Positions 24,738 to 54,844 are shown, counted from the first letter of the stretch. The stretch is DNA of 60,197 nt from an uncultured Nitrospirales bacterium (GCA_964574765.1 CAZNPC010000004.1:1-60197); one strand, 5' to 3'. Translations and numbers: made by a program. The notes: a model not told the origin generated them from the sequence alone.

Positions 24738-27700
24738 TCATATCGTCGGCAATGATATCGTAAACGTCGAGCCTTTATCTTTTTTGCTTTTAATATCTAT
24801 TTTCCCTCTGTGATCTTCAACAATTCGGTACATTATGGACAAACCCAGCCCCATTCCCCTGTCAGGTGACTTAGTTGTATAAAACGGGTTTAGAATGTTC
24901 TTAATATCATCTTCAGATATGCCGCACCCTGTATCTTCAAAAGATATCTTTATATGTTTCTTATTTCTGCTTAAAGCCGTTTTTATGGTTATCTCCCCCC
25001 CTTCAAGCCTGTTACAGATCTCAATAGCGTCCCGCGCATTGGTTAAAATATTAATAAAAGCCTGCTCCATTTGGTTAGCGTCGGCCATGATGTTCGGGAG
25101 GTCTTTAGCAAGAACCGTTATTAAACGGATATTGCGTATCCTGAACTGTTCATTGAGAAGCATTAATGAATCTTCAACAGGCCTGTTAACATCTGTTTCC
25201 TTAAACTCAAACTCAGACTTTTTGGCAAACATGCGCATATGCCTGATTATCTTGTCCATTCTGTTTGACTGCTCAACAATTTTATTCAGATCACTTGTTA
25301 GAGGGCTGTCTTTATCCAGGTCCATCAGCACTGCCTGCGCAAAACCCTTTATGCCTGTCAGGGGCTGATTAAGCTCGTGTGATATGCCGGCCGCAAGCTG
25401 GCCTATTGCCGCCATTTTGCTTGACTGCAGAAGCTGTTCCTGGGTTTCCTTAAGCTCTCTAAACGCTCCTTCCAACTCTGATTCCGCCCTCTTGCGTTTT
25501 GTTATGTCATCATAAACAGCTACTACTTCTCCTGAGGGCAGTTTGTACACATAATTTTCCACCCAATGTGAAATACGACTGTCTTTATATAAAGTCAAAG
25601 GCAGGTGTTCCGGCTTCCCGGTTCTCCATACCCTTTGAAACACATCAAAAAGGCCCAATTCTTTGACCCCGGGGAACATATCAGTAACCCTTCTGCCAAT
25701 AATCGATTCCCTCTTTATGTCACTGATCGCTTCTCCTGACTTGTTAATATCAAGGAATAAAAAGTCTTCCCCATCTTCCTCAGCCTTGTACACAGCGACT
25801 CCGCTGCTCATATTGTTAAACAGTTCCTTGAACCTCAGCTCGCTGTTCTGAATTGCTTCTTCAGCCCTCTTGCGTTCGGTAATGTCTCTTGAAATCGCCC
25901 TGGTTCCTATGAATTTGTTATTCTCATCCATTTCAACAAAAACATTCAGGATAACAGGGAAAACCGTACCGTCTTTCCGAACAATATTCCTCTCTATGTT
26001 TAACAGGTTTCTCTTTTTGGAAACACTTGGGAATAGCTTTTCAAAAAACGACTTTGATTCGTCTGTGAAAAAATCCGTAAGCGGCCTGCCGACGACTTCA
26101 TCTTTTTCATAACCAAGCATGTTAAGCCACGTCCTGTTACACTCGGTTATTATCCCTTTCTTATCAAGGGAATGGTACATGTCAGGGGCATTGTCATACA
26201 AATCCTGATATTTTTCCTCTGATCTTTTGAGTTTATCTTCTGCCTGCTTGCGCTCTGTAATATCTGTAAGAAGCCATATTTCACCTTTACCATAGCTATA
26301 CCCGATAAATTCAATATAACAATAACTGCCGCATTTCTTTGTGACAGGCAAGACACGGGCGAAAGGAAAACCGGCGATTCTGTCCTGATCATAATACCCG
26401 CGTATTGTATCCGCTTCTCTGCCGTATAGTTTCGTAAACCAGGCGTCAAGTGTGGTAATCTCCGCACGGGTGTATCCTATCATTTGTTCTACAGCCCTGT
26501 TTAAATATATTCTATCTTTTTCTAAATAAATTGCCCCTCTCGGCAGGTTCTCAACCATCAGTCTGAACTTTTCTTCACTTTCTTTAAGCAGCTTCTCAGC
26601 ATTTTTACGTTCGGTGATATCTCTGCCGTACAGGTTCACATACCCATGTTCCGGTATTGGAACAAGGTTGTAGGAAAAAACTTTACTGTCTACAATGACT
26701 TCTAACATGAAATAAGACTTCTTCTCCTTAAATGACTCGCCTATGAGGTTATCAAGATTCTCCGGCAGGAGCTGAAAAATATCCTCATCTTTTAATCCGG
26801 ATTCCTGCATCAGACAGTCGAATGCTTCATTCTTATAGAGAACGGTTTTATCTCTGCTAACCCTTAAAACGGGATTCGGGTTCTCAGAAGGGAACTTCGC
26901 AAGACTTTCAATTTCTTCTTCCGCTTTCTTGCGCTCTGTGATATCGCGGGCTATGACGAAATAGAATATTTCGTCATCCATATCAACCGGATAAGCCGAG
27001 GATTCAAACGTAAGGTAGTCACCATTATTAATTTTGTATCGATATTCCAGATTTCTTAAAGACCCTTTGCCAGAGACCAGGCCATTCCAGGCGGTAATAA
27101 CTTTTTCACGGTCATCCGGATAAACCATGTTTAAAGAATCCTCACTATATTTCGATTCCGAACCAAAACGTTTTCTCCAGGCCTTATTTGACCATAACGG
27201 CCTGGCTGATGCATCAGCTAATGTAATAAGATCGTTTGAGCTTTCAAAGAGCAGGCGGAATCTTTCTTCGCTTTTACTTAATCCCTCCTCTGCTTTCTTG
27301 CGGTCAGTGATGTCTTCGACTGTACAGATCATTCCATTGAACTTACCGTCTTCAAGTCTTGGGATTAGCCATCCGGCCTGATAACTCTCGCGGCCTGATG
27401 GGATAACAACAGGAAGCGCGTCATATTTCACAGGTTTCAGGTCTTTTTTTGCCTTTAAATAATAAGGCCTGAAATATTTAAGGGTATTCTCCGGGAAACC
27501 CGTTAAAACATGCATATTTTTTATCTGCTCCCCGGGAATTCCAGCAATATCTGTCATAGCTCTGTTAGTGTAGAAGACCACATCATCTTTGTTAGTCACC
27601 CAGACTCCATTATTAATTCCATTCAATATGCTGTTAAAGAAATCCTTGGATCCATGTATCTCTTTCTCTACCCTGGCACAATGGTCTATCTCTTTATGCA

Positions 27701-28193
27701 GCCGCTCCACTGCTGAGGTCAGCTCTGAGGTGCGTTCCTGTACCAGATTTTCAATCTCTTCTCTTGACCTTATGAGTGCCTCTTCTGCCTGTTTGCGCTT
27801 TGAGATGTCCCTTACAAGCTCGATCCCCGCGATTATTTCACCATTCAGGCCTTTTAGAACAGAAGCTGTATGCTCATAGTATCTTATTCCTTCATTTGTA
27901 TTGCTGATACGCTCCACCGTGCGGGTCTTGCCGTCCCTGAACGATATGGAAAGATGACATCCTTCACAAATTCTATCCCTGTCCTGATATGCTTTGTAGC
28001 AGTACTCTCCGATGTGGTCACCTGCAAGATCACGGTGGGCACTGTTCTGGTATATGACCCTGTAGTCAGTGTCCTGAACAGTTACAAGATCACCGATTGC
28101 ATCAATAATTCCGGCAGTGTTAATATGGTTTAGAATCATGTTATTGGATATATACTCCATATCTCGCGGCAAATAAAATAATACAGAACACAT
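24738..28193 (-). CDS. Soluble multi-PAS (about 7) sensor histidine kinase
   Basis: Repeated PAS/PAC; H-box AAGISHELNQPL, N-box NARDA, G1 DTGCGI, F NPFYTTK, G2 GMGLGL; no TM helix. The start may be a downstream Met. Confidence 0.93.
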   Translation of the reverse strand: MCSVLFYLPRDMEYISNNMILNHINTAGIIDAIGDLVTVQDTDYRVIYQNSAHRDLAGDHIGEYCYKAYQDRDRICEGCHLSISFRDGKTRTVERISNTNEGIRYYEHTASVLKGLNGEIIAGIELVRDISKRKQAEEALIRSREEIENLVQERTSELTSAVERLHKEIDHCARVEKEIHGSKDFFNSILNGINNGVWVTNKDDVVFYTNRAMTDIAGIPGEQIKNMHVLTGFPENTLKYFRPYYLKAKKDLKPVKYDALPVVIPSGRESYQAGWLIPRLEDGKFNGMICTVEDITDRKKAEEGLSKSEERFRLLFESSNDLITLADASARPLWSNKAWRKRFGSESKYSEDSLNMVYPDDREKVITAWNGLVSGKGSLRNLEYRYKINNGDYLTFESSAYPVDMDDEIFYFVIARDITERKKAEEEIESLAKFPSENPNPVLRVSRDKTVLYKNEAFDCLMQESGLKDEDIFQLLPENLDNLIGESFKEKKSYFMLEVIVDSKVFSYNLVPIPEHGYVNLYGRDITERKNAEKLLKESEEKFRLMVENLPRGAIYLEKDRIYLNRAVEQMIGYTRAEITTLDAWFTKLYGREADTIRGYYDQDRIAGFPFARVLPVTKKCGSYCYIEFIGYSYGKGEIWLLTDITERKQAEDKLKRSEEKYQDLYDNAPDMYHSLDKKGIITECNRTWLNMLGYEKDEVVGRPLTDFFTDESKSFFEKLFPSVSKKRNLLNIERNIVRKDGTVFPVILNVFVEMDENNKFIGTRAISRDITERKRAEEAIQNSELRFKELFNNMSSGVAVYKAEEDGEDFLFLDINKSGEAISDIKRESIIGRRVTDMFPGVKELGLFDVFQRVWRTGKPEHLPLTLYKDSRISHWVENYVYKLPSGEVVAVYDDITKRKRAESELEGAFRELKETQEQLLQSSKMAAIGQLAAGISHELNQPLTGIKGFAQAVLMDLDKDSPLTSDLNKIVEQSNRMDKIIRHMRMFAKKSEFEFKETDVNRPVEDSLMLLNEQFRIRNIRLITVLAKDLPNIMADANQMEQAFINILTNARDAIEICNRLEGGEITIKTALSRNKKHIKISFEDTGCGISEDDIKNILNPFYTTKSPDRGMGLGLSIMYRIVEDHRGKIDIKSKKDKGSTFTISLPTI

Positions 28194-28453
28194 TTCACAT
28201 ATATGCCAACTCCTTAATATAAGGATTTAGCAGTATATAAAAATATACACGAATCAAGGAAATTAAATTATTTTGAAATCACTAGAAATGATATTATATC
28301 TATTTATACCATATTATCAACATAAGTCAAGATAAATATATTGATATCCATTTAATTATTACCCTCTTTTGAATGGGGTCAGGTCCCGCCACACTACAAG
28401 GCGGGCAGGCTTGTATTTTAACATTCTTGTTAAATTATGCTATATTACCAATT

Positions 28454-29236
28454 ATGGCTAGGCCTCTAAGAATTGAATATAACGGAGCAATCTATCACAT
28501 TACTTCGCGTGGAAATGCAAAAAACCCCATATATAAATACAATTTTGATAGGCGGAATTTTCTGGATATTCTAAACAAGGTGAACAAGCGATATAATTGG
28601 CTCTGTCATGCATACTGTCTGATGAATAACCACTACCACCTTATTATAGAAACCTCGGATGGAAATCTGTCAAAAGGAATGAAACAGCTAAATGGTGTTT
28701 ACACGCAGTGGTTTAATGCTGTACACAAAAAGGTGGGACATTTATTCCAGGGCAGATACAAGGCAATTTTAATAGAGAGAGAAAATCACTTACTGGAAGC
28801 CTGTAGATATGTTGCATTAAACCCGGTAAGAGCAAAAGCAGTAGATCATCCTGAAAAATGGAAATGGAATAGTTATAACTCAACATCAGGCAAAAATAAA
28901 CTTCATCCATGTTTGACAGCAGACTGGACACTGAATCAATTCGGGAAAAGGAAAAAAGAAGCAATAAGCAAATACAAAGAGTTTGTTCAGGCAGGAATTG
29001 GAGGGGATAGATTATATAATAAAGTAACCGGTCAGAGCATACTGGGTGATGACGGTTTTATTGATGAAATGAGCAGATATATAAGGGAACATGAAAAAAT
29101 AAAAGAAATAACAAAAGAACAAAGATATATAAACAGGCCGGGGCTTAGAGAAATCTTTTCTGAAGAGGTGTTAGCAGATAAACCTGAAAGGAACAGGAAA
29201 ATATTACATGCTGTTGAAAAGTTTGGCTATAGTTAG
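28454..29236 (+). mobile_element. REP-associated tyrosine transposase (RAYT/IS200-like Y1 HUH), possibly C-terminally truncated
   Basis: MARPLRIEYNGAIYHITSRGN, YCLMNNHYHL (HUH), GHLFQGRYK and RYVALNPVRA motifs; start at ATG 28454. Confidence 0.88.
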
Positions 29237-29249: not shown

Positions 29250-30920
29250 CTACCAGTCAATTCTCAGGAATTTGCGTGTGATCTCGGGGTCGAAATGGGT
29301 GCCTATTAGCGAACGAATATTCCCAAGCGATTCCTCTTTTGATATGGCAGGTCTGTATGGACGGTCCGAACATGCCGCGTCGTATACATCAGCAAGAGCA
29401 AACAGCCTTGCGGCCAGGGGTATATCTTCTCCCTTAAGTCCCCTGGGGTATCCGGTGCCGTCCCACTTCTCATGATGGCAATAAGGTATATCAAGCGCCC
29501 CCCGCAAATACTCAATTGGATACAGCATCTCATACGCGTATACAGGATGCATTTTCATTATTCTCCATTCATCTTTTGTTAAGGGGCCTGGTTTAAGCAA
29601 AATATTGTCAGGTACACCCATCTTTCCCATGTCATGCAAAAGCGCTCCCCTCCGGGCATTAATGACATCTTCTTCTTTTATCCCGATCTCCCGTGCCATA
29701 CGAACCGTCATTTCTGTTACACGCTGTGTGTGCCCCTCTGTCTCCTTGTCTCTCAGGTCCATTGCTCGGGACCAGCCTTCAATTGTCGAATCATAAGCAA
29801 GCGTAAGGTCAAGATTCGAACGCTGAAGCCCTTCAAACAGAGCGGCATTATCTATGGCAATTGCCGCCTGACTGGCAATTGTCTCTATAAATTCCAGCCA
29901 CTCAGGATCGAGGTTCAGAAAAGACCGGTTGAACAGCTCCAGGATTCCTCTTACCTGCCCCTTGGCAATCAGTGGAACCGCAATATAGGCAACAAACTCT
30001 TCATCAGTAAATTGTTTTGAGTGGACAAAACCGGCAGGTGTTTTCTTAAGGTTAACAATGGCAACTGTATTGCGTTTCATTGCCGCCCGGCCTGCATTGC
30101 TCTCACCCAGTCTTAGTCGTGTGTATCTTAAAGCACTTGTTCTGAAGCCCCTGCTGTTAACATATTCCAGAGTCTGGGTTTTATGGTCAAGGAGCAGTAT
30201 AGTAGCGGCATCCATCCCCAATTGAGTTATAACCTGGTCGAGCATAATATCCAGGGTAACGCGCAGATCAAAACTGCCGGAGATAGCCCTTTCTATGGAA
30301 CGGAGAGTATTCAGGCGCTTAAACTGAAGCTGCACCATATTCTCCGACCTTTTTCGCTCTGTCAGAATTTCTTTCAGGTTCCTTACGGATTTAAGAAGTT
30401 CGGCTGTACGCTCCTTTACCCGGTTTTCCAACTCGTCATTGACTCTTTTCAGCTTTTCCTCAGCAGCTATACGGTCATCTATTTCCTGCAGGTTGCTCAT
30501 CAGTAGACCATTTACCCTCTTGTCGTACGCCTCTATCTCTTTTACGGCCCGCCTGGAGATGACTCTGACCAGCAACATGCTTATAACCACGAGCAATGAC
30601 GCAACAGTAAGCATGGCAACCACTGAAAAAGACGGGATATAATCCAGGACCGCATACAAAATCTTTACATTCACAAAAAGGAGGGTAAAGACCACAATCA
30701 GGACTACTGCATTGAGAACTCTTATGTTACGGTCTATTGCGTGTATAATACCGGTCTTTTTATATGCTCTGTTATCTGACATCTCTACCACCTTTGGCAA
30801 AAATTCTACCCGCGACTCTCTCCTTGCAAGTCCGTTCAGACTGCCAGAAATACTTTTGATGATCCCGAACATCTTCTCTTTTTCTTTCAGCAACTTAATT
30901 CCTTCTTTTATCCAAAACAT
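29250..30920 (-). CDS. Membrane GAF/HD-GYP c-di-GMP phosphodiesterase
   Basis: Two TM helices, GAF (VPLIAKGQVRGIL), ET.GHT.RV, LHDMGK and HHEKWDGTGYP. Confidence 0.92.
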   Translation of the reverse strand: MFWIKEGIKLLKEKEKMFGIIKSISGSLNGLARRESRVEFLPKVVEMSDNRAYKKTGIIHAIDRNIRVLNAVVLIVVFTLLFVNVKILYAVLDYIPSFSVVAMLTVASLLVVISMLLVRVISRRAVKEIEAYDKRVNGLLMSNLQEIDDRIAAEEKLKRVNDELENRVKERTAELLKSVRNLKEILTERKRSENMVQLQFKRLNTLRSIERAISGSFDLRVTLDIMLDQVITQLGMDAATILLLDHKTQTLEYVNSRGFRTSALRYTRLRLGESNAGRAAMKRNTVAIVNLKKTPAGFVHSKQFTDEEFVAYIAVPLIAKGQVRGILELFNRSFLNLDPEWLEFIETIASQAAIAIDNAALFEGLQRSNLDLTLAYDSTIEGWSRAMDLRDKETEGHTQRVTEMTVRMAREIGIKEEDVINARRGALLHDMGKMGVPDNILLKPGPLTKDEWRIMKMHPVYAYEMLYPIEYLRGALDIPYCHHEKWDGTGYPRGLKGEDIPLAARLFALADVYDAACSDRPYRPAISKEESLGNIRSLIGTHFDPEITRKFLRIDW

Positions 30921-31014: not shown

Positions 31015-33843
31015 TTACACTGTTAAAGCATCTTCAACATGTTTTCGGACATCCACAAGATCAAGCGGTTTTTCTATGTAGGCGTAAGCGCCCAATCGAC
31101 TGCTAAGTTCTTTTGTTTTTTCAGTACCGAAACCGGTCATTAATATTACCTTAACGTCCTTATTCGTTCTCTTGATCCGCCGCAGAACCTTAAAACCGTC
31201 CATCGTGCCCGGCATTTTAATATCAACAAACGCGACCCGCACATCACTGCCTCTTACAATATCCAGCGCTTTTCGGCCGTTAGAAGCCAAATGCGTGATG
31301 TAACCTTTTCCGTCCAGAAATTTCTGTAATAACTCCTGTACTATATTCTCATCGTCGGCAATCAGAATGTCCTTGTCACTGACCCTGGAACTCTCTTCCA
31401 GCATCGCTTGAGACACCGCCATGTTCGGCTTATAATTCGGAACAATTCTTGTTAACTTCTCAGTTAATGTATTAATGCACTCTTTCTCGACAAGATCGGC
31501 GAGGAAGTTGATATCATTGAAAATGTTACGGCCGTTGACTCTTGACGGTTTAACTATCATCATCCTCTCGTGACGGGTTTTCTCCAGTTTTTCATCATCC
31601 GCCACAAGGGCCTCGTACATCTTTTCACCGGGCCTGAGTCCGGTGAATACTATTTCTATATCTTTGTCAGGCTCCAGTCCCGAAAGTTTGATAAGACTCC
31701 TGGCAATATCAACTATCTTCAACTGTGTCCCCATCTCAAGTATAAATATTTCTCCGCCGTTACCCATAAAACCCGCTTCCACTACAAGCCCGGCAGCCTC
31801 GGGTATTGTCATAAAGTATCTTTTGATATCAGGGTGAGTTATCGTTACAGGCCCGCCTTTTTCAATCTGCTTTTTGAACGTAGGTATGGCACTTCCTTCA
31901 CTCCCCAGGACATTGCCAAACCTGACGCAAATGAACTTTGTTCCGTATTCCGCCGCCAGGGCAGTTATGTACATTTCCGCGACCTTCTTGGAAACCCCCA
32001 TATAACTGGTCGGGTCAACTGTTTTGTCAGTCGAGAGCATGATGAATTTTTCCGCACCTATATTCATAGCTTCTTCCGCCAGTGTCTTTGTTCCAAAAAC
32101 ATTATTTTTGATGGCCTCCATGGGATTTGCTTCCATAAGAGGTACATGTTTGTGGGCCGCCGCGTGAAAAATGATCTGAGGTTTATGTTCAGCAAATACC
32201 TGTTTAACTCTCATCCTGTCACAGCTATCCCCGATAACAGGGACAATATCGGATTTCGGAGATTTCTGGCTGAGTTCCATATCTATGTAGAACAGCGCGT
32301 TCTCCGACTTTTCGAAAAGAACCAGTTTCCCCGGCGACAGTGCCGCGATCTGCCTGCACAGTTCAGAACCAATTGATCCGCCTGCTCCGGTAATAAGCAC
32401 GCTTTTTCCTTCAATATAATTTTTGAGCTTTTGCCTGTCTATCTGGACTTCATCTCTCCTGAGAAGATCCTCCAGCTTTATCTCGCGCAGTTCCTTCACT
32501 TTTACAGTCCCGTTTACAAGATCTGCCATCCTGGGAACTGTCCGGTATTTCGCTCCGCTCTGTATGCAGTAATTAACGATCTCCCGCATCTGATATGACT
32601 TCAATGAAGGAATAGCGATAATAATTTCCTCAACAGTATTCTCTTTGACGATTTTCGGGATATCCGACCTTGCTCCAAGGACAGTTACACCGTGTATACG
32701 GCTATTATATTTTCTGACATCATCATCAATCAGCCCCACCACTTTATAATTATTGTCATACCGGTAGATCATGTCCCTTAAAATCATTTCTCCGGCATCC
32801 CCCGCGCCCACAACCAGAACCCTTTTCTGCCTGTCATTCCCATTTTCCAGTTTCCACCTGATAGGCCTTGTGATACGAATAAAAAATCTGACCCCGCCTA
32901 ATATAACTACTAGCAGAAGCCAGTCGATAATAAATATGGACCGCGGGTGTCCCAGCTGCAGTGCCATTACAACTGCAGCAATAAATACCGAGCTCAGAGT
33001 CACAGCTTTTATTATCTGGGCCAGATCCTTGATGCTCGCATACTGCCATGCGCATTTATGGAGCTTGAAATAGAACAGCGCAGACACTCTTGCCGCTAAC
33101 ACCAAAGGGAGCAATTTAAACATAATTGTTCGATGTTCTGCATCAGGTACTCCGTCAAACCTCATAAAATAAGCTGCAATGTAGCAGAAGGCGATTATGA
33201 TCATATCCAGCAGGAAGATCAGGTTTTGCCGCCAACTTTGGCCGAATCTGCTCATGCTGCCCTTGGCGTTGAAAACGGTCTTGAGGATCAGTTTAATATC
33301 GAGGAAAATTCCGTGATTGTCAACATACCCGGAAGCAAGCCTGATCTTTTCGGGAAGTATCCTTTTGATGTAATCTTCTTCCCATTCCGGAGATAATGAA
33401 AGTTCAGTTTCTTCATCATAATATTTTATTGATGCCGGATCTGTTATGCCGGGCCGTATTGTAAGGATTTTTTCATAATCCGACCTGTAAAGATCCACAT
33501 ATTTTTCAACTTCAGGCCTCGGCCCGACAAGGCTCATATCTCCTTTCAGGACATTTATCAGCTGAGGCAGTTCATCAATTTTGGTTTTCCTTAAGAACCT
33601 GCCGATACGCGTTATCCGGTCATCGCCGCATACAGTAATTAAAGGACTTCTTTCTGAAGAATCCGGCCGCATAGACCTGAACTTGTATATATAAAAAGGT
33701 CTGAATTCCCTGCCTATCCTCTCCTGCCTGTAAAAAACAGTCCCTTTATCCGTCAGTTTAATCAGTATGGCGACTGTAATAAAAAGGGGCAGAAGTATAA
33801 CTAACCCAAGCAGTGAAAAAAAGATGTCGAATAAACGTTTCAT
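31015..33843 (-). CDS. Fusion: phosphoglycosyltransferase + PglF/CapD-type nucleotide-sugar 4,6-dehydratase + C-terminal receiver domain
   Basis: KFRSM...DELPQLINVLKGDMSLVGPRPE; four TM helices; GAGDAG; TGAGGSIGSE, HAAAHKHVP, STDK...MGVSK, RFGNVLGS; REC ILIADDE...VDIKMP...MTG...EKP. Confidence 0.92.
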   Translation of the reverse strand: MKRLFDIFFSLLGLVILLPLFITVAILIKLTDKGTVFYRQERIGREFRPFYIYKFRSMRPDSSERSPLITVCGDDRITRIGRFLRKTKIDELPQLINVLKGDMSLVGPRPEVEKYVDLYRSDYEKILTIRPGITDPASIKYYDEETELSLSPEWEEDYIKRILPEKIRLASGYVDNHGIFLDIKLILKTVFNAKGSMSRFGQSWRQNLIFLLDMIIIAFCYIAAYFMRFDGVPDAEHRTIMFKLLPLVLAARVSALFYFKLHKCAWQYASIKDLAQIIKAVTLSSVFIAAVVMALQLGHPRSIFIIDWLLLVVILGGVRFFIRITRPIRWKLENGNDRQKRVLVVGAGDAGEMILRDMIYRYDNNYKVVGLIDDDVRKYNSRIHGVTVLGARSDIPKIVKENTVEEIIIAIPSLKSYQMREIVNYCIQSGAKYRTVPRMADLVNGTVKVKELREIKLEDLLRRDEVQIDRQKLKNYIEGKSVLITGAGGSIGSELCRQIAALSPGKLVLFEKSENALFYIDMELSQKSPKSDIVPVIGDSCDRMRVKQVFAEHKPQIIFHAAAHKHVPLMEANPMEAIKNNVFGTKTLAEEAMNIGAEKFIMLSTDKTVDPTSYMGVSKKVAEMYITALAAEYGTKFICVRFGNVLGSEGSAIPTFKKQIEKGGPVTITHPDIKRYFMTIPEAAGLVVEAGFMGNGGEIFILEMGTQLKIVDIARSLIKLSGLEPDKDIEIVFTGLRPGEKMYEALVADDEKLEKTRHERMMIVKPSRVNGRNIFNDINFLADLVEKECINTLTEKLTRIVPNYKPNMAVSQAMLEESSRVSDKDILIADDENIVQELLQKFLDGKGYITHLASNGRKALDIVRGSDVRVAFVDIKMPGTMDGFKVLRRIKRTNKDVKVILMTGFGTEKTKELSSRLGAYAYIEKPLDLVDVRKHVEDALTV

Positions 33844-35003
33844 ACAAACACCCTGTTCCTTCTGACCGCGGCCGCCTTAACTGTCTTTACCACTCTTTTC
33901 AGGTCGTCTTCTGTCATTGCAGTGCCGGATGGAAGGCAGAGTCCCCGGTCGAACAGGTCCTCGCAGACCTTCCCGCCGCGCATTGAACACTCTTTAAACA
34001 CCGGCTGCATGTGCATTGGCTTCCACAAAGGCCGGGCTTCCATATTCTGATCTTCCATTGCCGAACGAACCTGCTCCCTGCCTGCACCGAATTCATCAGG
34101 GGAAATCAGAATAACGGTCAGCCATCGATTCGAGCGTCCGTAATGCGCCTCGGGCATAAACTCAATTCCCGGTACTCTGGATAATGCGTTTTTGTAGCAA
34201 TTAAATATCCTGCGTTTAGCTTCTATACGGTCATTAAGCACTGCCAATTGTCCACGGCCGATAGCGGCAAGTATATTGCTCATCCGGTAGTTATAGCCTA
34301 TCTGCGAATGTTCATAGTGAGGAGCAGGATCAATGGCCTGCCGGGAAAGAAATCCGGCCTGTTGAATAAACTCTATATCGTCAGATACAAGCATACCCCC
34401 GCCGGAAGTTGTGATTATCTTATTGCCGTTAAACGAAAAAATCGCCGCTTTTGCCCCTGCCCCCGCACTGCGGCCTTTATAGGTTGATCCAAGGGCCTCC
34501 GCAGAATCAGATATGACAGGTATATCGAATGGGGCACATATCTCAAGGATTCTGTCCAGGTCTGCGCATTGACCGTATATATCCGTTGAAATGACAGCTT
34601 TCGGCAAACAGCCCGACTCCCATCTCGAGTCAAGCTCTTCTTTTAACAATTCAGGGTCGATATTCCACGACATACGTTCGGAATCGATAAAGACAGGCAC
34701 CGCACCCTGATAAATAACCGGATTTACGCCTCCTATAAAGGTCAAAGAAGGGGAAATCACCTCATCTCCAGGACCTACACCGATAATCCGAAGTGCCAGA
34801 TGAATGGCAGCCGTCGCGCTCGATACTGCAAGGGCATATTTAAACCCCAGCCTTCGGGCAAACTCTTTTTCAAAGGCATCGACCTGCGGGCCTAATGGAG
34901 CAATATAGTTGCTCTCAAACGTTTCGAGCACAAAACGCTTTTCTTCTCCGCTCATGTGCGGAGGCGAGAGGAAAATTCGTTTTTTGCGGCTGTAAGTGTT
35001 CAT
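33840..35003 (-). CDS. DegT/DnrJ/PglE-type PLP sugar aminotransferase
   Basis: SSATAAIHLAL, DSAEALG, SFNGNKIITTSGGG and GYNYRMSN motifs. Confidence 0.95.
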   Translation of the reverse strand: MNTYSRKKRIFLSPPHMSGEEKRFVLETFESNYIAPLGPQVDAFEKEFARRLGFKYALAVSSATAAIHLALRIIGVGPGDEVISPSLTFIGGVNPVIYQGAVPVFIDSERMSWNIDPELLKEELDSRWESGCLPKAVISTDIYGQCADLDRILEICAPFDIPVISDSAEALGSTYKGRSAGAGAKAAIFSFNGNKIITTSGGGMLVSDDIEFIQQAGFLSRQAIDPAPHYEHSQIGYNYRMSNILAAIGRGQLAVLNDRIEAKRRIFNCYKNALSRVPGIEFMPEAHYGRSNRWLTVILISPDEFGAGREQVRSAMEDQNMEARPLWKPMHMQPVFKECSMRGGKVCEDLFDRGLCLPSGTAMTEDDLKRVVKTVKAAAVRRNRVFV

Positions 35004-35275: not shown

Positions 35276-36526
35276 TTAATTTTGATGTATCAGCGCCTTA
35301 TTGTGCCATGTAAGTTTTTCTTTATACTTTTCCGTCAGGTATTTCTGCCATTGCTTAAGTTGATAATTGCTAAGGTGATTTGAGTGCCAGAAATCATTAC
35401 TGTATTCATCGGCACTTTCCCAATCCACTGACCCGTATTTCCCAGGATCATACATCTGCGTCCCGGGATAGGGGCAGAGAATGGTAAAACCATACTCATC
35501 AAGCTCCAGCTCATCCGCGAGATTTTCCGTCAGCCTAAGATCGTCCTCTGTTTCATCAGGCATCCCAAGAATAAAATATCCCCGTATAAGGATTCCCGCC
35601 CTTTTAGCCCATCCCACAGACTGTTTGATTTTCTCAACAGTAGTTCCTTTTCCGATCTGTTTAAGTATGCGGGGAGAACCCGACTCCACCCCGACCGCAA
35701 TTTCATAACAACCTGCTTCCGCCATCAAATGGAACATTTCCTGCGTGCACATTCCCGCGTGAATATTCGGGTAAAAAGGAGTCTGGAAACCCCTTTTGAT
35801 TTTTTCTCTGCAGAATTCAAGTACCCAGTTTATGCTTGTGTTCCACGTCGGGTCTGTAAACTTCATCAGATCGAGGTCATAGGTATCCGAAACTTCCCGC
35901 ATTTCATCCAGAAGGTCATGAACCTGCCTGTAGCGCACACCTGCCTTTTTGACATCCCTGTATAAAACTTTGTTAAAGCCGTCAGCGCAGTATTTGCATC
36001 TGTACGGACAGCCCCTGTGACTCTGGAACGCTGTAATTTTCTTTCTGTTATCGTTGTAGGCAACCTGAATGTTGCGTTCGTTCCTGATCAATCTCCGGTC
36101 AGGCCATGGAAGTTCGCCAAATTCCATCGGCCGTCCGATTACCAGTCTCTCTCTGTTGCCCCACACAATATCCAGCATCGCGGCTTCGCCTTCTCCAATT
36201 ATTACCTGGTCTATCCCTTCAACCGTACAATCCTCAGGGACTGCCGACGGATGATAACCTCCTGCAACTGTATGAATATCAGGGTTGTTCTGTTTCACGG
36301 CCCGCGCGATAGCCGAAGTATGAGGGAACGTTGGGGTAGTACATGAAAACGCCACGATATCAGCATCCATACAGCCCTTGATAATTGTTTCGTCATTATC
36401 AAAGCTTCCCTGATAAAACCCTATCTCAATGTCACTCTCAAATTGTTTGAGATACGCGCCGATATATCCAAGGCCGAGAGCTTCCCAGGAATTGAAATAC
36501 TTTCCGTGAACCAGTATTACTTTCAT
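35276..36526 (-). CDS. B12-binding-domain radical SAM protein
   Basis: LGLGYI, GGYHPS, GEGE, RGCPYRCKYC and GVESGS motifs. Confidence 0.92.
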   Translation of the reverse strand: MKVILVHGKYFNSWEALGLGYIGAYLKQFESDIEIGFYQGSFDNDETIIKGCMDADIVAFSCTTPTFPHTSAIARAVKQNNPDIHTVAGGYHPSAVPEDCTVEGIDQVIIGEGEAAMLDIVWGNRERLVIGRPMEFGELPWPDRRLIRNERNIQVAYNDNRKKITAFQSHRGCPYRCKYCADGFNKVLYRDVKKAGVRYRQVHDLLDEMREVSDTYDLDLMKFTDPTWNTSINWVLEFCREKIKRGFQTPFYPNIHAGMCTQEMFHLMAEAGCYEIAVGVESGSPRILKQIGKGTTVEKIKQSVGWAKRAGILIRGYFILGMPDETEDDLRLTENLADELELDEYGFTILCPYPGTQMYDPGKYGSVDWESADEYSNDFWHSNHLSNYQLKQWQKYLTEKYKEKLTWHNKALIHQN

Positions 36527-36559
36527 AAAGATATCCCTTATATTTCTTCATTAATCCGG

Positions 36560-37279
36560 CTATTTAACAGCATAGCTGGCCATAATGTATCTGTACTCAT
36601 TCTTTAATCGTTTAAAAAGCGTCTGATCCAGGGCAATCCCTATCCGGCTCATTCTATGAGATATCCTCGCGAGAAAAGGCGCTGAAAACCAGAAAGAACT
36701 TATGCTGCAATCATTGAAAGACTCCATGTAACGCTGTCCCTTTTCCACCGTCATATAGTTCCATGTCTTATACCAGGGAATGAAACATCTTCTGTAAAAG
36801 CCTGACAGAAAACTTCCTTTAAGATTTTCGCAAAACACGAGGTGCCCGCCTTTTTTTAATATCCTCTGCATCTCTGAAACAATATTAGTCTGCTTATCTG
36901 CCGGGATGGCGCCCAGCATGGATTTAAAACAGACGATATCAAAGGTTTCGTCTGCCAAATTGTTATGCAGTATATCTAAAGTCTCATAGCTTATTTCTCC
37001 GGGGAATTTATAGGGCTGATGAGACTTTTCCGCTGCCACTACAAGATTACTGTTAATGTCGGAACACAAAACGTTACAGCCCCTCTTTGCGAAATATAGA
37101 GACAATCCGCCTCTACCCGCCCCTATTTCTATAACATTAAACCCCTTAATATTTACCGGTAGTCCGGATACTGCAAATTCAAACGCAGGTATCCATAAAT
37201 AGTTATTGGGACCGAGAATCAGGCAATATTTCAATCCGGTTATATGCTCTTTTTTATTATCAGTAAACTTTTTTATCAT
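36560..37279 (-). CDS. Class I SAM-dependent methyltransferase
   Basis: VIEIGAGRGG, FDIV and RILKKGG motifs. Confidence 0.85.
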   Translation of the reverse strand: MIKKFTDNKKEHITGLKYCLILGPNNYLWIPAFEFAVSGLPVNIKGFNVIEIGAGRGGLSLYFAKRGCNVLCSDINSNLVVAAEKSHQPYKFPGEISYETLDILHNNLADETFDIVCFKSMLGAIPADKQTNIVSEMQRILKKGGHLVFCENLKGSFLSGFYRRCFIPWYKTWNYMTVEKGQRYMESFNDCSISSFWFSAPFLARISHRMSRIGIALDQTLFKRLKNEYRYIMASYAVK

Positions 37280-37294
37280 TTATTTCTCCGGCCT

Positions 37295-38299
37295 TCAGGA
37301 CGCGATTGCCGTTCTTTTTCGAAAAAGAACTTCCAAAAATCCGCTAATCGTGCCAAATCCATAGACAAGATGATAGACAGGAAATATGAGCAGAAGAAGG
37401 AGCACAGTGGGAGTTTTTTCTCTAAGCAATACGGCAAATGTACTTAAAGCGGCGGCGGTTACATATAATAAAACCAGGCCTGCCAGCAATAATAAGGCCT
37501 GAGGATAAATCAGAGATACCATCATCAGTACTAAAATCGACATGACGAAGAAAAAAGGTATAAAACGCCGGATCCGAAACGCCCCGGGATTGGCTATTAC
37601 AGCGCGCGCGTTGGCTGTCCCTGTCCTTACCGCCTGACTGAGCAGTCCTCTGAGTGTAGACTGATTATAATAGACGGCTGTTAATTCCGGAGTCGAGAAT
37701 ATTTTTCCCCCGGCCGTGATAATACGGCTGTTCAGCTCATTATCCTCATTACGCACAAGTCTCTCATCGAACAGACCTGTTTTTTGAAATGTCTGACGTC
37801 TGTATACACCAAATGGAACTGTATCAACATAACCTTCATATTTTGATGTCCTGAACTTTGAGTTCCCGACACCGAACGGATGAGAAGTAGCCAAAGCAAT
37901 GCCCTTTGCCATGAGCGTATTATCACCGGGTATCGTATCGACAGGGCCGCCGACAACATCCGCACCGGTTGTTTTCAAATACTCAATACCCTTTCTGATA
38001 TAGTGCGCAGGATATTCCGAGTGAGCGTCCATCCTGATAACAATACTTCCTTTTGCGTTGCGTATCCCGATATTCAGGGCAGATGGCGTTATTTTTTTCC
38101 TGTTCTCCAGAAGCCTGATATACGGATATCGCTCTGAGTACTTCCGGATGATCTCCCTTGTCCTGTCAACGCTCATGCCGTCGACGAACAGAACCTCAAG
38201 TTTGTCTTTGGGGTAATCCTGGACAATGATAGAGCCACAGCACCTGTCTATGAATCTTTCCTCGTTCCGGCAGGGTATTATTACTGACGCTTCTATCAT
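37295..38299 (-). CDS. GT2 glycosyltransferase (ExoA-like)
   Basis: SVIIPCRNEE, VDGMSVD, RMDAH, RNED and C-terminal TM helices; start ATG 38299. Confidence 0.92.
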   Translation of the reverse strand: MIEASVIIPCRNEERFIDRCCGSIIVQDYPKDKLEVLFVDGMSVDRTREIIRKYSERYPYIRLLENRKKITPSALNIGIRNAKGSIVIRMDAHSEYPAHYIRKGIEYLKTTGADVVGGPVDTIPGDNTLMAKGIALATSHPFGVGNSKFRTSKYEGYVDTVPFGVYRRQTFQKTGLFDERLVRNEDNELNSRIITAGGKIFSTPELTAVYYNQSTLRGLLSQAVRTGTANARAVIANPGAFRIRRFIPFFFVMSILVLMMVSLIYPQALLLLAGLVLLYVTAAALSTFAVLLREKTPTVLLLLLIFPVYHLVYGFGTISGFLEVLFRKRTAIAS

Positions 38300-38303
38300 G
38301 GTA

Positions 38304-39455
38304 CTACCCCCTGAAATCAACAACTGTGCATCCATGCTCCAGTTCGTAAACTCTCTCAATACCATCGACTTTCAGCGAATCAATATCCCTGGAGTTCATT
38401 GTTCTTTTTTTATTCAGCAGGAACCGGATATATCCTGATACAAGCGGCAGGATGTTTTCCAGAGAAAGGCCGTTAATACATTTCATTCCGTATTCGCAGT
38501 CATTTATATAACGTTTTAAGGAGTTATAACACGGACTGCAATCGCAGGCCTTCCGGATCACCAGATTGTCAGCGCCGTACGGTGATGTCTTATAGAAATC
38601 CGTGTAACTCCATAAGGCGATAACAGGTACTCCCAAGATGGCACTCATATGCATTGGTGCGGAATCGTTACCGATAAAAAGGCCGCATTTTTTTATTATG
38701 GAAGCCGTCTGAAAAAGTGTGGGCGACTCAGGCATAACAGCGCTTTCTCCGATACCTTTGATAACAGTCTGTTTAAGCCCGGATTCATCACGTCCGCCGA
38801 CTATAACAAACCTGCAGGCAAACCGGCCGGCCAGTTCACTGCATAATTCAATCAGTTTCTCCGGAGCCCAGCGTTTACCGTTACCGTTCGCGCCGGGGTG
38901 GACAGCAATAACAAATTTATCCTGAAGGCCGTTGTCAGAAAAGAAATTATCAGCGTAATCTTTATATTCTTTTTCCACTGTCCTGTTAAACACACTTCCG
39001 GTATTCAGATACCCGCGGTTCGCAACTTCGAAAAGAGCGTAATTCGCGTTTATGTTATGGATTCTCGATGTCTGCAGCCGCTTTGGTGAATAGAGTCTTT
39101 TGAGAAACCTCCCGCCGTTTTTCCCGTTCAAAAGAACTGTCTTCTCCCTCGCCCTTGCCAGCAGGCCGACTACACCTTCCCGTTTAAATGAAGGATACGC
39201 CAGATAGACTTTGTCAAAACGCATCCGCCTGAGCCTCCTGCCCAGCCGGATAATGTTTTTTACGGCATTCTGAGATTCGTCCCATATATGAACCTGCCTT
39301 TCAGGAAATTGCGACAGCGCCAGCTCCTGCGATCCATTGTTGGATACCGCAACAGATATGTTGACAGGATACTGGTCCATAAGCTTTTCAGCCGCACTTA
39401 AAACCATAAGTGTATCTCCAATTCCCTGGAGAGATATGATCAGGATATTTGTCAT
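38304..39455 (-). CDS. GT9 (heptosyltransferase-like) glycosyltransferase
   Basis: GIGD, HPGA...KRW and FIGNDSAPMHMSA motifs. Confidence 0.9.
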   Translation of the reverse strand: MTNILIISLQGIGDTLMVLSAAEKLMDQYPVNISVAVSNNGSQELALSQFPERQVHIWDESQNAVKNIIRLGRRLRRMRFDKVYLAYPSFKREGVVGLLARAREKTVLLNGKNGGRFLKRLYSPKRLQTSRIHNINANYALFEVANRGYLNTGSVFNRTVEKEYKDYADNFFSDNGLQDKFVIAVHPGANGNGKRWAPEKLIELCSELAGRFACRFVIVGGRDESGLKQTVIKGIGESAVMPESPTLFQTASIIKKCGLFIGNDSAPMHMSAILGVPVIALWSYTDFYKTSPYGADNLVIRKACDCSPCYNSLKRYINDCEYGMKCINGLSLENILPLVSGYIRFLLNKKRTMNSRDIDSLKVDGIERVYELEHGCTVVDFRG

Positions 39456-39459
39456 CAGG

Positions 39460-40905
39460 CTATGACCGGCTTTCGCTGCTCCTGCAAAAATTCCGCCTTA
39501 CAAGCTTTGCCGCCCATATTCTAAGCTTTACCATCAACCCAACGGCTCCGTGAATCCGGTAATAATAGAGCATCCTTTTAAAAATAAGCTTCTTGTGATT
39601 TCCGATAATATGATTGACAATGGACTTCTCCGCGTTCTCTTTCAGAGCTATTAACTTTTCAGGTGCAAGTCCTGTCATATTCACTATCGGCGCCTTCTGC
39701 CATGCTTTCCATTTTTCAACCAGGTCTTTCAGACTGCTGATTTTTCCAGACTCCCATGCCTTGTCATAAAGCGGAGTGCCCGGTATTGGAGCCGCGTAAC
39801 CGAATCCCTCGACTATTCCTATTTCCTTGCAGAATTCTACTGTCTCATTAATTGTCTCCTCGGTTTCACCCGGCATCCCGATCATCATATATGGAAAAGG
39901 GGTTATCCCCGACCTCCACGTCATGTCAATGGCCCTTTTTGCCTGATCCACTGTTGTTTTTTTATTCATTTCTGTAAGTATGCTTTGACTGCCTGACTCA
40001 ATGCCGTAACCCATCAGAACACATCCGGCAGATTTCATCTCACGGAGTAAATTCTCATCTATAAGGTTTACGCGTCCATTACATGACCACATCATATTCA
40101 TATCATTGCCGGTCATTTGTTTGCAGAATTCATAGACCCTCTTTTTGTTGAGAATTAACAGATCATCAACAAACGCTACCGCCTTGATACCATACCTCTC
40201 CTTCAGGAGCTTCATCTCCTCTATCATATTGTCGACCGACCTGCTGCGAAACCTATAGCCGAAGATACTGTGATCGCAGTATATACACCGGTATGAACAA
40301 CCCCTGCTTGATATCATGTTCAGATTTTTTATGGGTGCTTCAAATCCCAAAGCCAGCCCGCTCGTGTATATATCCATTGGGAAAAGTTCCCAGGCGGGGA
40401 AAGGAATATCATCAAGAGACGGCAGGAGTTCGCGCGGCGGGTTACTGTGGATTATACCGCTGCGCCTGTACCAGATTCCTTTAACTGCGGAAAGATCTCC
40501 TGATGTCCCAAGCACATCGATGAGTTCAGTTATTGTTGCTTCACCTTCACCAATAACAACAATATCAGCCTCTGTTTCACGGAGCACAAGTTCAGGTACT
40601 ACTGACGGCAGGCCGCCTCCAATGATAACAGGGCGGTCACCATGATACTTTTTGATAATGGAGCACAGCCACTTCACCTGCTTGTAATCCGTAATCATAC
40701 TGGTTATGCCAGCCGCGTCAAACGACAGTTCCCTGATCCTGTCTTCCACTTCTTCCGGTGTCCAGCGGTTAGCGTTGATATCCAGCACATCAATGCTGTG
40801 CCCGGCAACCATCAGGGTTCGCGCGATATAACCAAGTCCAAGCGGAAATAATATTTCAGGATGTGATGATTCCTCTTTAATCGGGTTTATCAATAAAATA
40901 TTCAT
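39460..40905 (-). CDS. B12-binding-domain radical SAM protein
   Basis: PLGLGYIA, GEGE, RGCSYRCIYC and GIESGS motifs. Confidence 0.93.
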   Translation of the reverse strand: MNILLINPIKEESSHPEILFPLGLGYIARTLMVAGHSIDVLDINANRWTPEEVEDRIRELSFDAAGITSMITDYKQVKWLCSIIKKYHGDRPVIIGGGLPSVVPELVLRETEADIVVIGEGEATITELIDVLGTSGDLSAVKGIWYRRSGIIHSNPPRELLPSLDDIPFPAWELFPMDIYTSGLALGFEAPIKNLNMISSRGCSYRCIYCDHSIFGYRFRSRSVDNMIEEMKLLKERYGIKAVAFVDDLLILNKKRVYEFCKQMTGNDMNMMWSCNGRVNLIDENLLREMKSAGCVLMGYGIESGSQSILTEMNKKTTVDQAKRAIDMTWRSGITPFPYMMIGMPGETEETINETVEFCKEIGIVEGFGYAAPIPGTPLYDKAWESGKISSLKDLVEKWKAWQKAPIVNMTGLAPEKLIALKENAEKSIVNHIIGNHKKLIFKRMLYYYRIHGAVGLMVKLRIWAAKLVRRNFCRSSESRS

Positions 40906-40929
40906 AAGACGTTCCTTTCGAAAAGTTTA

Positions 40930-42141
40930 TTATTGATTTCCAGCCTCCTCTACAATAGAAAAGATCTCCCCCGCCCGTTTCGCCCATGAATTCTCATACG
41001 CCAGTTCCCTTCTCCTTGCCGGCATCCCGTCATTTTCTTCCAAAGCCAGCCTTATCTCCCTTTCAAATTCCCTGTAATCGCACCCTATACGCACTACCCC
41101 GGAATATTCATCAACCGATGGCAGTTTTGTAGATACAATAGGTTTGCCGGTAGCCAGATATTCATACAGTTTAAGAGGCGAACAGCTTATGTTAAACGGG
41201 TCATCCGGAACATAAGGAATGATACAGACATCAAACGCCTTTATATAGTTCGGGAGTATTTCCAGCGGCTGGTGTCCCATCCAATGGATATTCGCTGTTT
41301 TCTTCAGCTTTTTTATAAGGTCCGAATTTACAAAATCAGGATCAGCCCCTGACCAGTCCCCTACTATCACTATCGACCATTCCGGGTGAGAGACAGCTAT
41401 GTGGCCGATCAAATTGAAATCAATCCGCTGATGCAGATTGCCGACCATTCCTATTATTGGATGCGGTATATCTGCCATGCGGGGGGGGACCTCGGTTGAT
41501 TCGTCGGCCGCCCTGCCGAACAATTCAGTGTCAGCCGCGTTAGGGACTATATATGTCTGTTTGTTGAGCTTTGATTTTTTTTCATACAGATCATTTGAGA
41601 CGGTCAAAACAATGTCAGCATTTTCAAGAATCCGGTTTTCCCTCAGCATACTTTTCTCTTTATTCATAAAGATGGAATTCCCGGGGATGGCAAAATAATC
41701 ATCAAAACAGTCATAGATGCTTTTTTTCTCGTTGATCAGCCCGAGACAGTTGTCCTGAACCGGGTCTGATATCCATGAGACAAGATTATTTTTTCTCAAC
41801 CCGAGCTCGTCTATTTTTCTCGTAACCTGATATGAAAGCGCTTTTCTGTTCAATTCCGCCGCACCCGGTACATACGGTGCCAGGTGGTCGTTCAGGAAAA
41901 TAACCGGCTGGTAAATAAACAGGTTCGGAAGCACCCTGTTCAGCCGTTCCTTTTTTTTAAACCAGGACACAACCTTTTTTCTGTCCCTCAGGAGGGTCGT
42001 AAAAAAACATATGGGCCGCTGTACACATAATATCCTGCAGTTCGCTCTGGCCTTTGCCATCGAAAGAAATAAATACTTATTCCTGTGTTGATTGATCCAA
42101 TCAACTGAAAGAAATGCAACAAAGTCAACATCTGAGATCAT
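40930..42141 (-). CDS. Glycosyltransferase (GT4/TuaH-like)
   Basis: YDCFDD, VPNAAD and PLKLYEYLATGKPIVST motifs. Confidence 0.9.
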   Translation of the reverse strand: MISDVDFVAFLSVDWINQHRNKYLFLSMAKARANCRILCVQRPICFFTTLLRDRKKVVSWFKKKERLNRVLPNLFIYQPVIFLNDHLAPYVPGAAELNRKALSYQVTRKIDELGLRKNNLVSWISDPVQDNCLGLINEKKSIYDCFDDYFAIPGNSIFMNKEKSMLRENRILENADIVLTVSNDLYEKKSKLNKQTYIVPNAADTELFGRAADESTEVPPRMADIPHPIIGMVGNLHQRIDFNLIGHIAVSHPEWSIVIVGDWSGADPDFVNSDLIKKLKKTANIHWMGHQPLEILPNYIKAFDVCIIPYVPDDPFNISCSPLKLYEYLATGKPIVSTKLPSVDEYSGVVRIGCDYREFEREIRLALEENDGMPARRRELAYENSWAKRAGEIFSIVEEAGNQ

Positions 42142-43583: not shown

Positions 43584-43596
43584 TGCTGTATTTCCT

Positions 43597-44805: not shown

Positions 44806-44809
44806 CTTA

Positions 44810-47024: not shown

Positions 47025-47028
47025 GTCT

Positions 47029-48219: not shown

Positions 48220-48273
48220 TTTTGAAATTTACCCGTTCTGAAAAGATATAAAGAAATGCTCTGCTGATAGAGG

Positions 48274-50816: not shown

Positions 50817-50822
50817 AATTCG

Positions 50823-52004: not shown

Positions 52005-52119
52005 TGTTCCTAAATTATTTATACCTGGGAAATCAGAAATATTTGCACGACTCTGGAGATTTACTTATCGGAAAACTTTTAAGCCCGGGTTTCAAACGGC
52101 ACAGCATGGACTCATGTAA

Positions 52120-54818: not shown

Positions 54819-54844
54819 GGCAACAGGGATATTAAGAATGAATA

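Follow-up and report, generated by a model that had tools for sequence, protein, structure and literature searches.

Several described systems bear on a triple-fusion protein that is encoded at 31015..33843 (minus strand) in a 60,197-nt stretch of DNA from an uncultured Nitrospirales bacterium (GCA_964574765.1 CAZNPC010000004.1:1-60197; this whole stretch is hereafter the window). PMC11626204 defines bifunctional monotopic phosphoglycosyl transferases (BiPGTs) as proteins in which the catalytic core of a monotopic phosphoglycosyl transferase (monoPGT) is joined to a second enzyme of the pathway. According to PMC12802240, a 2021 network study catalogued monoPGTs that are fused to sugar-modifying and to receiver domains. 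It was in PMC12802240, in 2025, that direct activation of an initiating phosphoglycosyl transferase (PGT) by a response regulator was first published: in Myxococcus xanthus, EpsW~P acts in trans on the large monoPGT EpsZ and activates it post-translationally. Large PGTs and PglF-like dehydratases share a homologous module of four transmembrane helices and a domain of unknown function (4TMH-DUF), which PMC10942596 calls puzzling; it also proposes that the DUF of large PGTs is regulatory and binds uridine monophosphate. Among small PGTs, a GLLLP loop motif and a five-residue aromatic box are co-conserved in those specific for uridine diphosphate (UDP)-N,N'-diacetylbacillosamine (diNAcBac) (PMC10186338).

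The window protein (P0001) combines a small PGT domain, a PglF-type dehydratase (DH) and a CheY-like receiver (REC) domain in a single chain of 942 aa. We propose, with a probability of roughly 0.6, that it is an inner-membrane enzyme of the bifunctional monoPGT kind, that phosphorylation of D874 by a histidine kinase switches its output, most probably via the dehydratase, and that the fusion of the PGT serves co-localisation.

Domain composition and integrity of the fusion protein

The open reading frame (ORF) starts with ATG, contains zero internal stops and encodes a PGT domain, a four-transmembrane (4-TM) bundle with a DUF, a dehydratase and a REC domain, in this order. Pfam searches with the 942-aa product matched PF02397 (Bac_transf) at aa 2-192 (E 1e-60; 204.8 bits against a cut-off of 27), CoA_binding_3 at aa 273-437 (E 3e-15), PF02719 (Polysacc_synt_2) at aa 482-765 (E 5e-116; 387.5 bits) and PF00072 (Response_reg) at aa 826-936 (E 2e-24; 86.3 bits). 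All four matches are far above the curated cut-offs and are therefore not due to chance. The ORF read-out and the Pfam matches agree with an earlier note on this DNA, made from the sequence alone, which had described one 942-aa ORF joining a PGT, a 4-TM PglF-type dehydratase and a C-terminal REC. The motifs named in that note were also located, i.e., DELPQ at aa 90 and GPRPE at aa 107 in the PGT, TGAGGSIG at aa 485, T605-D606-K607 and M615xxxK619 in the dehydratase, and D830-D831, D874 within VDIKMP, T903 and K925-P926 in the receiver.

Structure prediction with AlphaFold2 (AF2), using a 65-row alignment, gave a model with a mean predicted local distance difference test (pLDDT) of 87.1. It contains a helix-break-helix at aa 2-16/18-31, transmembrane helices at aa 201-228, 235-258, 271-295 and 301-324, a Rossmann-like domain, a short-chain dehydrogenase/reductase (SDR) fold and a (beta-alpha)5 receiver. 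A hydropathy scan similarly detected one N-terminal hydrophobic segment (aa 10-28) and four transmembrane segments within aa 208-321. The pLDDT drops below 50 at three inter-domain boundaries: two are the fusion junctions (aa 194-203 and 818-822) and the third separates transmembrane helix 4 from the DUF (aa 334-336).

The small monotopic PGT domain (aa 1-193; 33265..33843, minus) was delimited by Pfam, by alignment to WbaP and PglC structures and by the AF2 model. In the model, its first helices are broken at a proline in LLPLF, as expected of the re-entrant helix of a monoPGT. The Asp-Glu dyad D90-E91 and the nucleotide-binding PRP motif of G107-PRP-E (motif names from PMC10186338) are matched by identical residues at the aligned positions of WbaP structures. 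WbaP and PglC structures match this domain about equally, with the former covering aa 1-135 and the latter (8e37, 8g1n) giving E-values of about 1e-23 to 1e-24. Against the NCBIfam models, the fusion scores 321.6 bits with TIGR03025 (cut-off 295.55), split over two stretches, and falls under the cut-offs of both TIGR03023 (WcaJ) and TIGR03022 (WbaP). Its domain order, in which the PGT (aa 2-192) precedes the 4TMH-DUF (aa 201-467), would place it outside the large monoPGT class of WbaP and WcaJ; the presence of Polysacc_synt_2 in the same ORF as a monoPGT core would instead fit the BiPGT class.

A flexible stretch at aa 194-203 (33235..33264, minus) forms the first fusion junction and leads into the four-helix transmembrane bundle (aa 201-324; 32872..33243, minus), which was recognised by hydropathy and in the AF2 model. 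The Rossmann-like cytoplasmic DUF of the CoA_binding_3 type follows (aa 338-467; 32443..32832, minus) and is matched by PDB 3nkl over these residues. The PglF-type SDR domain, a predicted UDP-N-acetylhexosamine (HexNAc) 4,6-dehydratase (aa 478-770; 31534..32412, minus), was identified by Pfam, by sequence search against Campylobacter jejuni PglF (5bju; E 5e-84, query aa 453-808) and by Foldseek, which superimposed its fold on PglF with a template modelling (TM) score of 0.94 on the target and 41-42% identity. It has the features of PglF/WbpM/CapD-type enzymes: a GxxGxxG site for nicotinamide adenine dinucleotide (NAD), a T-D-K triad, Met in place of the Tyr of YxxxK, and the 4-TM bundle with its DUF. 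The PglF counterparts of the catalytic T-D-K and Met are apparent from the titles of PDB variants (T395V, D396N/K397A, M405Y). The equivalog for the inverting enzyme PseB gave the fusion 179.9 bits, compared to a cut-off of 407.75.

C-terminal helices and a tether (aa 774-821; 31381..31524, minus) connect the dehydratase to the receiver; the PglF crystal chain aligns as far as aa 808. The CheY-like receiver domain itself (aa 824-942; 31018..31374, minus) comprises D830, D831, the phospho-acceptor D874, T903 and K925, was recognised by Pfam and has Spo0F as its best solved match. In 35 aligned REC-bearing relatives, the first residue of the acidic pair is Asp in 34 and Glu in one, the second is Asp in all, and the phospho-Asp, Thr/Ser and Lys are each kept in 35/35. 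The dehydratase residues T605, D606, K607, M615 and K619 are kept in 34-35 of the same 35 relatives, and the glycines of TGAGGSIG are invariant or nearly so. The fusion has the full set of residues required for the chemistry of a PGT, a PglF-type dehydratase and a receiver.

The host genome is a metagenome-assembled genome (MAG) of 2.52 Mb in 282 contigs (91% complete, 4.4% contamination), one of which is the window in its entirety. The stretch is present in nine public runs from three studies, none of them on record as RNA, and the contigs of four runs, i.e., assembled DNA rather than raw reads, were compared with it. The two junctions that the earlier note had singled out proved continuous in these contigs, which show neither insertions nor deletions across 30800-34100. 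X3 record 7 and X4 record 11 span junction 1 (about nt 33235-33264), and X3 record 6, X4 record 8 and X5 record 17 span junction 2 (about nt 31368-31548). The X4 and X5 contigs, which come from a study distinct from the possible source runs, differ by 5-11 substitutions, are gapless and bridge both junctions. Moreover, an independent assembly from another genus of the same family (G006) encodes an uninterrupted four-part ORF that is 73% identical over aa 1-940. All four Pfam domains recur in this ortholog; its gene likewise overlaps a DegT gene upstream by 4 nt and is directly followed by a GAF-HD-GYP gene. The gapless contigs of the second study and the G006 ortholog exclude an artefact at the DNA level, and the fusion ORF is real and under selection.

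Distribution and evolutionary history of the domain order

To place the fusion among its relatives, we classed the best 120 of 7,992 database relatives by the window protein's own domain segments. These comprised 74 PGT-DH proteins, 27 DH-REC proteins, 15 plain dehydratases and four triples (the query, P0078, P0114 and P0118). Two of the 27 DH-REC proteins have an N-terminal DegT domain in place of the PGT, and at least two of the 74 PGT-DH proteins end in a PilZ domain. PilZ occupies the receiver's C-terminal position in P0052 (aa 815-918), P0077 (aa 879-982) and a protein of genome G116; the PGT-DH protein encoded at L027 967-3798 (plus) carries its PilZ at aa 818-919.

Full-length triples occur in 2/41 genomes of the window's order (G000 and G006 only) and, among the matches listed, in at least five of 401 evenly sampled genomes of the phylum. 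Besides G000, these are G374, G355, G198 and G263, all of one other family. Both PGT-DH single frames and adjacent PGT and DH gene pairs are frequent among the listed matches from the phylum genomes. The unfused order DegT-PGT-DH also recurs, often with adjacent or overlapping genes (L012, 0-nt gap; L017, 4-nt overlap; L028, L036, L038). As an observation apart, a further lone small PGT is encoded downstream of the fusion, at a distance of two to three genes, in the genomes of the other triple-fusion clade (L071 8816-9445, L073 4659-5312 and L164 2542-3210, all minus).

Further searches recovered few additional forms. A metagenome locus search with the C-terminal alignment, from which 80 loci were kept, gave DH-REC proteins only at L074 and L075 and a split form at L086 (862-4858, plus), in which a 38-nt gap separates a DH gene (655 aa) from a lone REC gene (158 aa) and a gene for a HisKA-HATPase-REC hybrid kinase (451 aa) comes next; the rest were plain dehydratases. 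In a genome-contig locus search with P0001, 29 loci were found, of which one (L042) was of the G006 type and 28 were ordinary dehydratase loci; 26 of the latter were from Bacillales, mostly Sporosarcina, and were caught via a conserved peptide pattern. A representative-library search with aa 766-942 was dominated by multi-REC proteins, and six of its matches also covered the linker. The earlier note's remark that this was not a recognised architecture holds in that no experimental work on a PglF-REC or PGT-DH-REC protein came up in full-text literature searches. It does not hold in another sense: triples from at least two lineages are already in databases and the class has been catalogued. The PGT-DH-REC architecture is rare, though not unique.

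Two trees were constructed from the 4TM-DUF-DH core. The first (FastTree, 146 rows) drew on the 120 relatives and loci L011-L041 with a core of >450 aa and left out duplicates of the window and of G006; the second (IQ-TREE, quick mode) used 51 rows hand-picked from the 146 and omitted P0118 as a long branch. The window protein and that of G006 pair up in both trees and nest in a starred clade that otherwise holds DH-REC and plain DH rows only, with row names referring to Omnitrophota, Elusimicrobiota and Nitrospirae MAGs. P0078, P0114 (= G263) and G374 nest, in both trees, in a starred clade of PGT-DH rows. Uniting five triples, a group chosen after the first tree had been viewed, costs 430 log-likelihood units in an approximately unbiased (AU) test (p-AU 2e-9), such that one clade is rejected. 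The PGT+DH label changes at least seven times on the 146-row tree.

Comparisons of individual domains give a similar picture. The window REC shares 45-75% identity with RECs of its own clade, compared to 26-29% with those of the other triples, whose active-site loop differs; this receiver divergence agrees with the split of the triples into two clades. Its PGT is 74% identical to that of G006 and 62-63% identical to the lone PGTs, about 200 aa long, of two genomes from its order, compared to 42-48% for the PGT parts of other triples. Met1 of the DH-REC proteins aligns with Met197 of the fusion in 8/10 cases checked, a position inside the disordered junction. Under the simplest history, loss of the stop codon of a small PGT gene in this lineage would have let it read through into a DH-REC gene at the latter's start codon; the other lineage would have gained its receiver when an unrelated REC was appended to a PGT-DH fusion already present. 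On this evidence, the triple fusion was assembled convergently, by two routes.

Predicted function of the receiver and alternative explanations

The predicted pathway begins with the dehydratase domain, which would act as an NAD-dependent UDP-HexNAc 4,6-dehydratase and make a UDP-4-keto-6-deoxy-HexNAc. The gene immediately upstream (33840..35003, minus; Pfam E 1e-96) encodes the adjacent DegT-type aminotransferase mentioned in the earlier note. It is LegC/PglE-like, reaching 364 bits against the NCBIfam LegC family (cut-off 420), and is predicted to be a sugar 4-aminotransferase; its 4-nt overlap with the fusion start points to translational coupling. This enzyme would turn the keto sugar into a 4-amino sugar, and N-acylation may follow. 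The PGT domain would then move the sugar-1-phosphate onto polyprenyl phosphate, and the lipid-linked sugar would prime the Wzm/Wzt-exported glycan of a 25-kb upstream locus. The earlier note had suggested that glycan initiation is channelled in one protein. This part goes too far: the aminotransferase step, and probably N-acylation too, separates the dehydratase and PGT activities. Fusion of the PGT would most probably provide co-localisation and a fixed 1:1 stoichiometry at the membrane rather than substrate channelling.

We infer phospho-gating of this enzyme from the intact and strongly conserved receiver, with a histidine kinase phosphorylating D874 and thereby switching output. The most probable route would be via the dehydratase module, where the REC is attached by its tether. 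We place the primary target of the REC there because the constant family partner of the REC is the dehydratase and not the PGT, because the tether between the end of the PglF-type fold and the REC is only about 15 residues long, because the split locus L086 pairs a dehydratase with a lone REC and a hybrid kinase, and because PilZ fills the same slot elsewhere. Switching of the dehydratase would throttle both the supply of donor sugar to the PGT and the consumption of lipid carrier; commitment of the lipid carrier would be gated as well, since the dehydratase feeds the donor of the PGT.

Two genes downstream of the fusion are relevant to this proposal. A membrane-anchored protein with a coiled coil, GAF and HD-GYP domains, its HD and HHExxDGxGYP motifs intact, is encoded 94 nt downstream of the fusion at 29250..30920 (minus). 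Its counterpart in the other genus (L021 13467-15125, minus) lies after a 9-nt gap and is 75% identical, and no terminator-like site was found on the minus strand between the fusion and the GAF-HD-GYP gene in the window. Such a gene is absent beside the other-clade triples (G374, G355, G198, G263) and downstream of L074, the sole DH-REC metagenome locus with downstream sequence. GAF-HD-GYP is a candidate member of the fusion system, with a possible link to cyclic di-guanosine monophosphate (c-di-GMP). A multi-PAS HisKA/HATPase histidine kinase without a receiver of its own is encoded at 24738..28193 (minus), 2.8 kb downstream of the fusion. It was rejected as an established cognate of the fusion, since its adjacency is not conserved in G006 and a gene resembling a repetitive extragenic palindrome (REP)-associated tyrosine transposase (RAYT) intervenes; we retain it as a candidate kinase.

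Several observations weigh against the proposal. No histidine kinase is adjacent to the fusion in G006, G374, G355, G198 or G263, and the nearest one in the window lies beyond the HD-GYP and RAYT-like genes. The predicted template modelling score (pTM) of the AF2 model is 0.56, which makes the relative placement of its domains unreliable. With respect to the donor sugar, GLLLP is absent from the whole fusion protein and the loop preceding DDRIT reads SPLITVCG; judged by this motif, the PGT would fall outside the UDP-diNAcBac-specific PglC cluster. Nor did a PglD-type acetyltransferase turn up among the window ORFs scanned. The fused catalytic steps are non-consecutive and therefore allow no direct channelling. 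Furthermore, genome G005, of the same family and another genus, has a plain 615-aa dehydratase that is 68% identical and lacks the PGT and REC; since this enzyme serves there, the extra domains are dispensable for the basic pathway. The choice of the AU-tested group with the first tree in view also belongs here.

In a different explanation, the REC regulates the dehydratase only, much like the receivers of the numerous DH-REC proteins, and the PGT fusion is a selectively near-neutral by-product of stop-codon loss between translationally coupled genes, with no kinetic or regulatory effect on the PGT step. We regard this as rather unlikely. It would account for the adjacent or overlapping PGT and DH genes in many genomes of the phylum, for the interspersed fused and unfused forms on the tree with their repeated label changes, for the old start codon marked by Met197, for the short and disordered junction at aa 194-203 and for the plain dehydratase of G005. 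It sits less well with the predominance of PGT-DH proteins among the best relatives (74 of 120), which span several phyla by their database names, and with maintenance of the fusion between two genera at 73% overall and 74% PGT identity. This persistence and recurrence of the PGT-DH fusion suggests some advantage. The long ORF might also be an assembly or sequencing artefact, or a recent pseudogene-like read-through that is never made as one protein. The fragmented MAG with its estimated contamination and the lack of RNA among the runs carrying the stretch would leave room for this, as would a purine-rich AAGG just 5' of the Met197 codon that makes internal initiation conceivable; this AAGG is weak in the window and has no clear counterpart in G006. 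Yet both junctions are bridged by second-study contigs that show substitutions only, the uninterrupted domain order is kept in G006, G374, G355, G198, G263, P0078 and P0118, and the catalytic residues are all intact. An artefact is all but refuted for the DNA, and we give this explanation as a whole hardly any credence.

The receiver could alternatively serve as an output or relay, whether as a sink for phosphate, an intermediate in a phosphorelay or a module for docking or oligomerisation, and couple precursor synthesis to signalling, for example through GAF-HD-GYP. HD-GYP enzymes are classically partnered with receiver domains (RpfG type), and the gene for this one directly follows the fusion in both genera, at the short gaps given above. 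The replacement of REC in other members by PilZ, a c-di-GMP receptor domain, points in the same direction. However, the triples of G374, G355, G198 and G263 have no HD-GYP neighbour and neither does L074 in its downstream sequence, and receivers covalently fused to enzymes usually control that enzyme. We therefore consider a relay role improbable and favour control of the fusion's own output by its receiver, most probably at the dehydratase.

A broader reading can be put forward only tentatively, with the odds somewhat against it: that the C-terminus of PglF-like dehydratases and PGT-DH fusions is a general signalling socket. In this case, phosphorylation or c-di-GMP would switch the first committed nucleotide-sugar step and thereby lipid-carrier commitment, as a widespread and hitherto undescribed post-translational layer of control. 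The basis for this is that REC was acquired there at least two times independently and that PilZ stands there in other members. If true, the switch in the window would govern this genome's only monotopic PGT and may tie to the HD-GYP c-di-GMP phosphodiesterase. The fusion carries the only Bac_transf match of the MAG, which elsewhere has two polytopic PGT matches and a second PglF-like dehydratase.

The glycan locus and comparison with described systems

The fusion is the last gene of a co-directional glycan locus of roughly 28 kb. Its upstream part (35276..59583, minus; Pfam and NCBIfam) encodes a WecB-type epimerase, a Wzy_C ligase-like protein, a Wzm/Wzt ATP-binding cassette exporter and glycosyltransferases (many GT4, one GT2 and one GT9), as well as four B12-radical S-adenosylmethionine (SAM) enzymes, methyltransferases and a PaaK-like adenylating ligase. 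The latter, a 487-aa ORF at 48274-49737 (minus), has no Pfam match at E 1e-4 and is PaaK/F390-synthetase-like in NCBIfam (E 7e-43, below cut-off). This ligase might acylate the 4-amino sugar, no PglD-type acetyltransferase having been seen. The B12-binding radical SAM enzymes, at 35276-36526, 39460-40905, 42138-43616 and 52120-53655 (all minus), are unusual for an O-antigen-like cluster, and a methyltransferase at 36560-37279 (minus) has a weak likeness to corrinoid-protein-associated CpaM. The sugars of the locus might undergo C-methylation or another form of radical tailoring. The Wzy_C-domain protein (555 aa; 56824-58491, minus), encoded next to Wzm/Wzt, may act either as an O-antigen ligase or as a PglL-like O-oligosaccharyltransferase; its sole NCBIfam match is "O-glycosylation ligase, exosortase A-associated", at 48 bits against a cut-off of 188.

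On the other side of the fusion, the RAYT-like gene (Y1_Tnp; 28373..29236, plus; NCBIfam 75.4 bits against a cut-off of 80) sits between the HD-GYP and PAS kinase genes and marks a break in synteny with G006. The 287-aa ORFs at 11172-12035 and 28373-29236 were considered as copies of one mobile element and rejected, their sequences being unrelated. Just downstream of the PAS kinase, 18874-24449 (minus) encodes, co-directionally, a CHASE8/multi-PAS/LuxR-type regulator, a YfiR/HmsC-like DUF4154 protein and a TonB-dependent receptor. Elsewhere, a 593-aa ORF on contig C27 of G000 (about 11060-12840; L002 430-2211, plus) joins a Glycos_transf_4 polytopic PGT to a C-terminal stretch that is homologous to aa 205-438 of the fusion at 36% identity. 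ORFs of 593-602 aa matching the same part of the fusion are also found in G006, G012, G016 and G018.

How bacteria share out limited undecaprenyl phosphate and rare nucleotide sugars between their glycan pathways is under active study. One chain with a dehydratase, a PGT and a receiver would offer a compact system to test post-translational control of glycan initiation. Convergent assembly, together with PilZ at the corresponding C-terminal site, speaks for signalling control here being selected rather than accidental. The practical impact is modest; the host is an uncultured hydrothermal-vent or marine bacterium, and the design can already be seen in databases.

Of the described systems, PglC, PglF and PglE of Campylobacter resemble the locus in the dehydratase fold, the T-D-K and MxxxK residues, the Asp-Glu dyad of the PGT and the DegT neighbour. 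However, these are three separate proteins without a receiver, whereas here the PGT and dehydratase are in one chain with a C-terminal REC; the fusion also differs from the pgl system in lacking GLLLP, and the window ORFs scanned in having no PglD-type acetyltransferase. BiPGTs such as Neisseria PglB (PGT and acetyltransferase) share the monoPGT core with an extra pathway enzyme, though the characterised ones have acetyltransferase or glycosyltransferase partners and no signalling domain, in contrast to the REC of the fusion. Salmonella WbaP (4TMH-DUF-PGT) contains the same three blocks, i.e., a 4-TM bundle, a nucleotide-binding DUF and a PGT domain, in a permuted order: in the fusion, the PGT precedes the 4TMH-DUF and is followed in turn by the SDR and REC. 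The 4TMH-DUF module of the fusion is that of a PglF-like dehydratase, unlike that of WbaP. Fusions of the PGT-4TMH-DUF-DH type, in which one module is flanked by both catalytic domains, bear on the puzzle of the shared module as set out in PMC10942596.

The nearest relatives of aa 197-942 are the DH-REC proteins of about 750 aa that carry Omnitrophota or Elusimicrobiota MAG labels (58-69% identity; REC 45-75%). These lack the PGT domain and are known as database predictions, with no publication found. The closest regulatory parallel is EpsW/EpsZ, where a phosphorylated CheY-like receiver controls the start of polysaccharide synthesis. There, the receiver EpsW is a single-domain protein in its own right, which promotes the dimer of the large monoPGT EpsZ in trans; in the fusion, by contrast, the predicted receiver is covalently attached, lies behind the dehydratase and is combined with a PGT of the small type.

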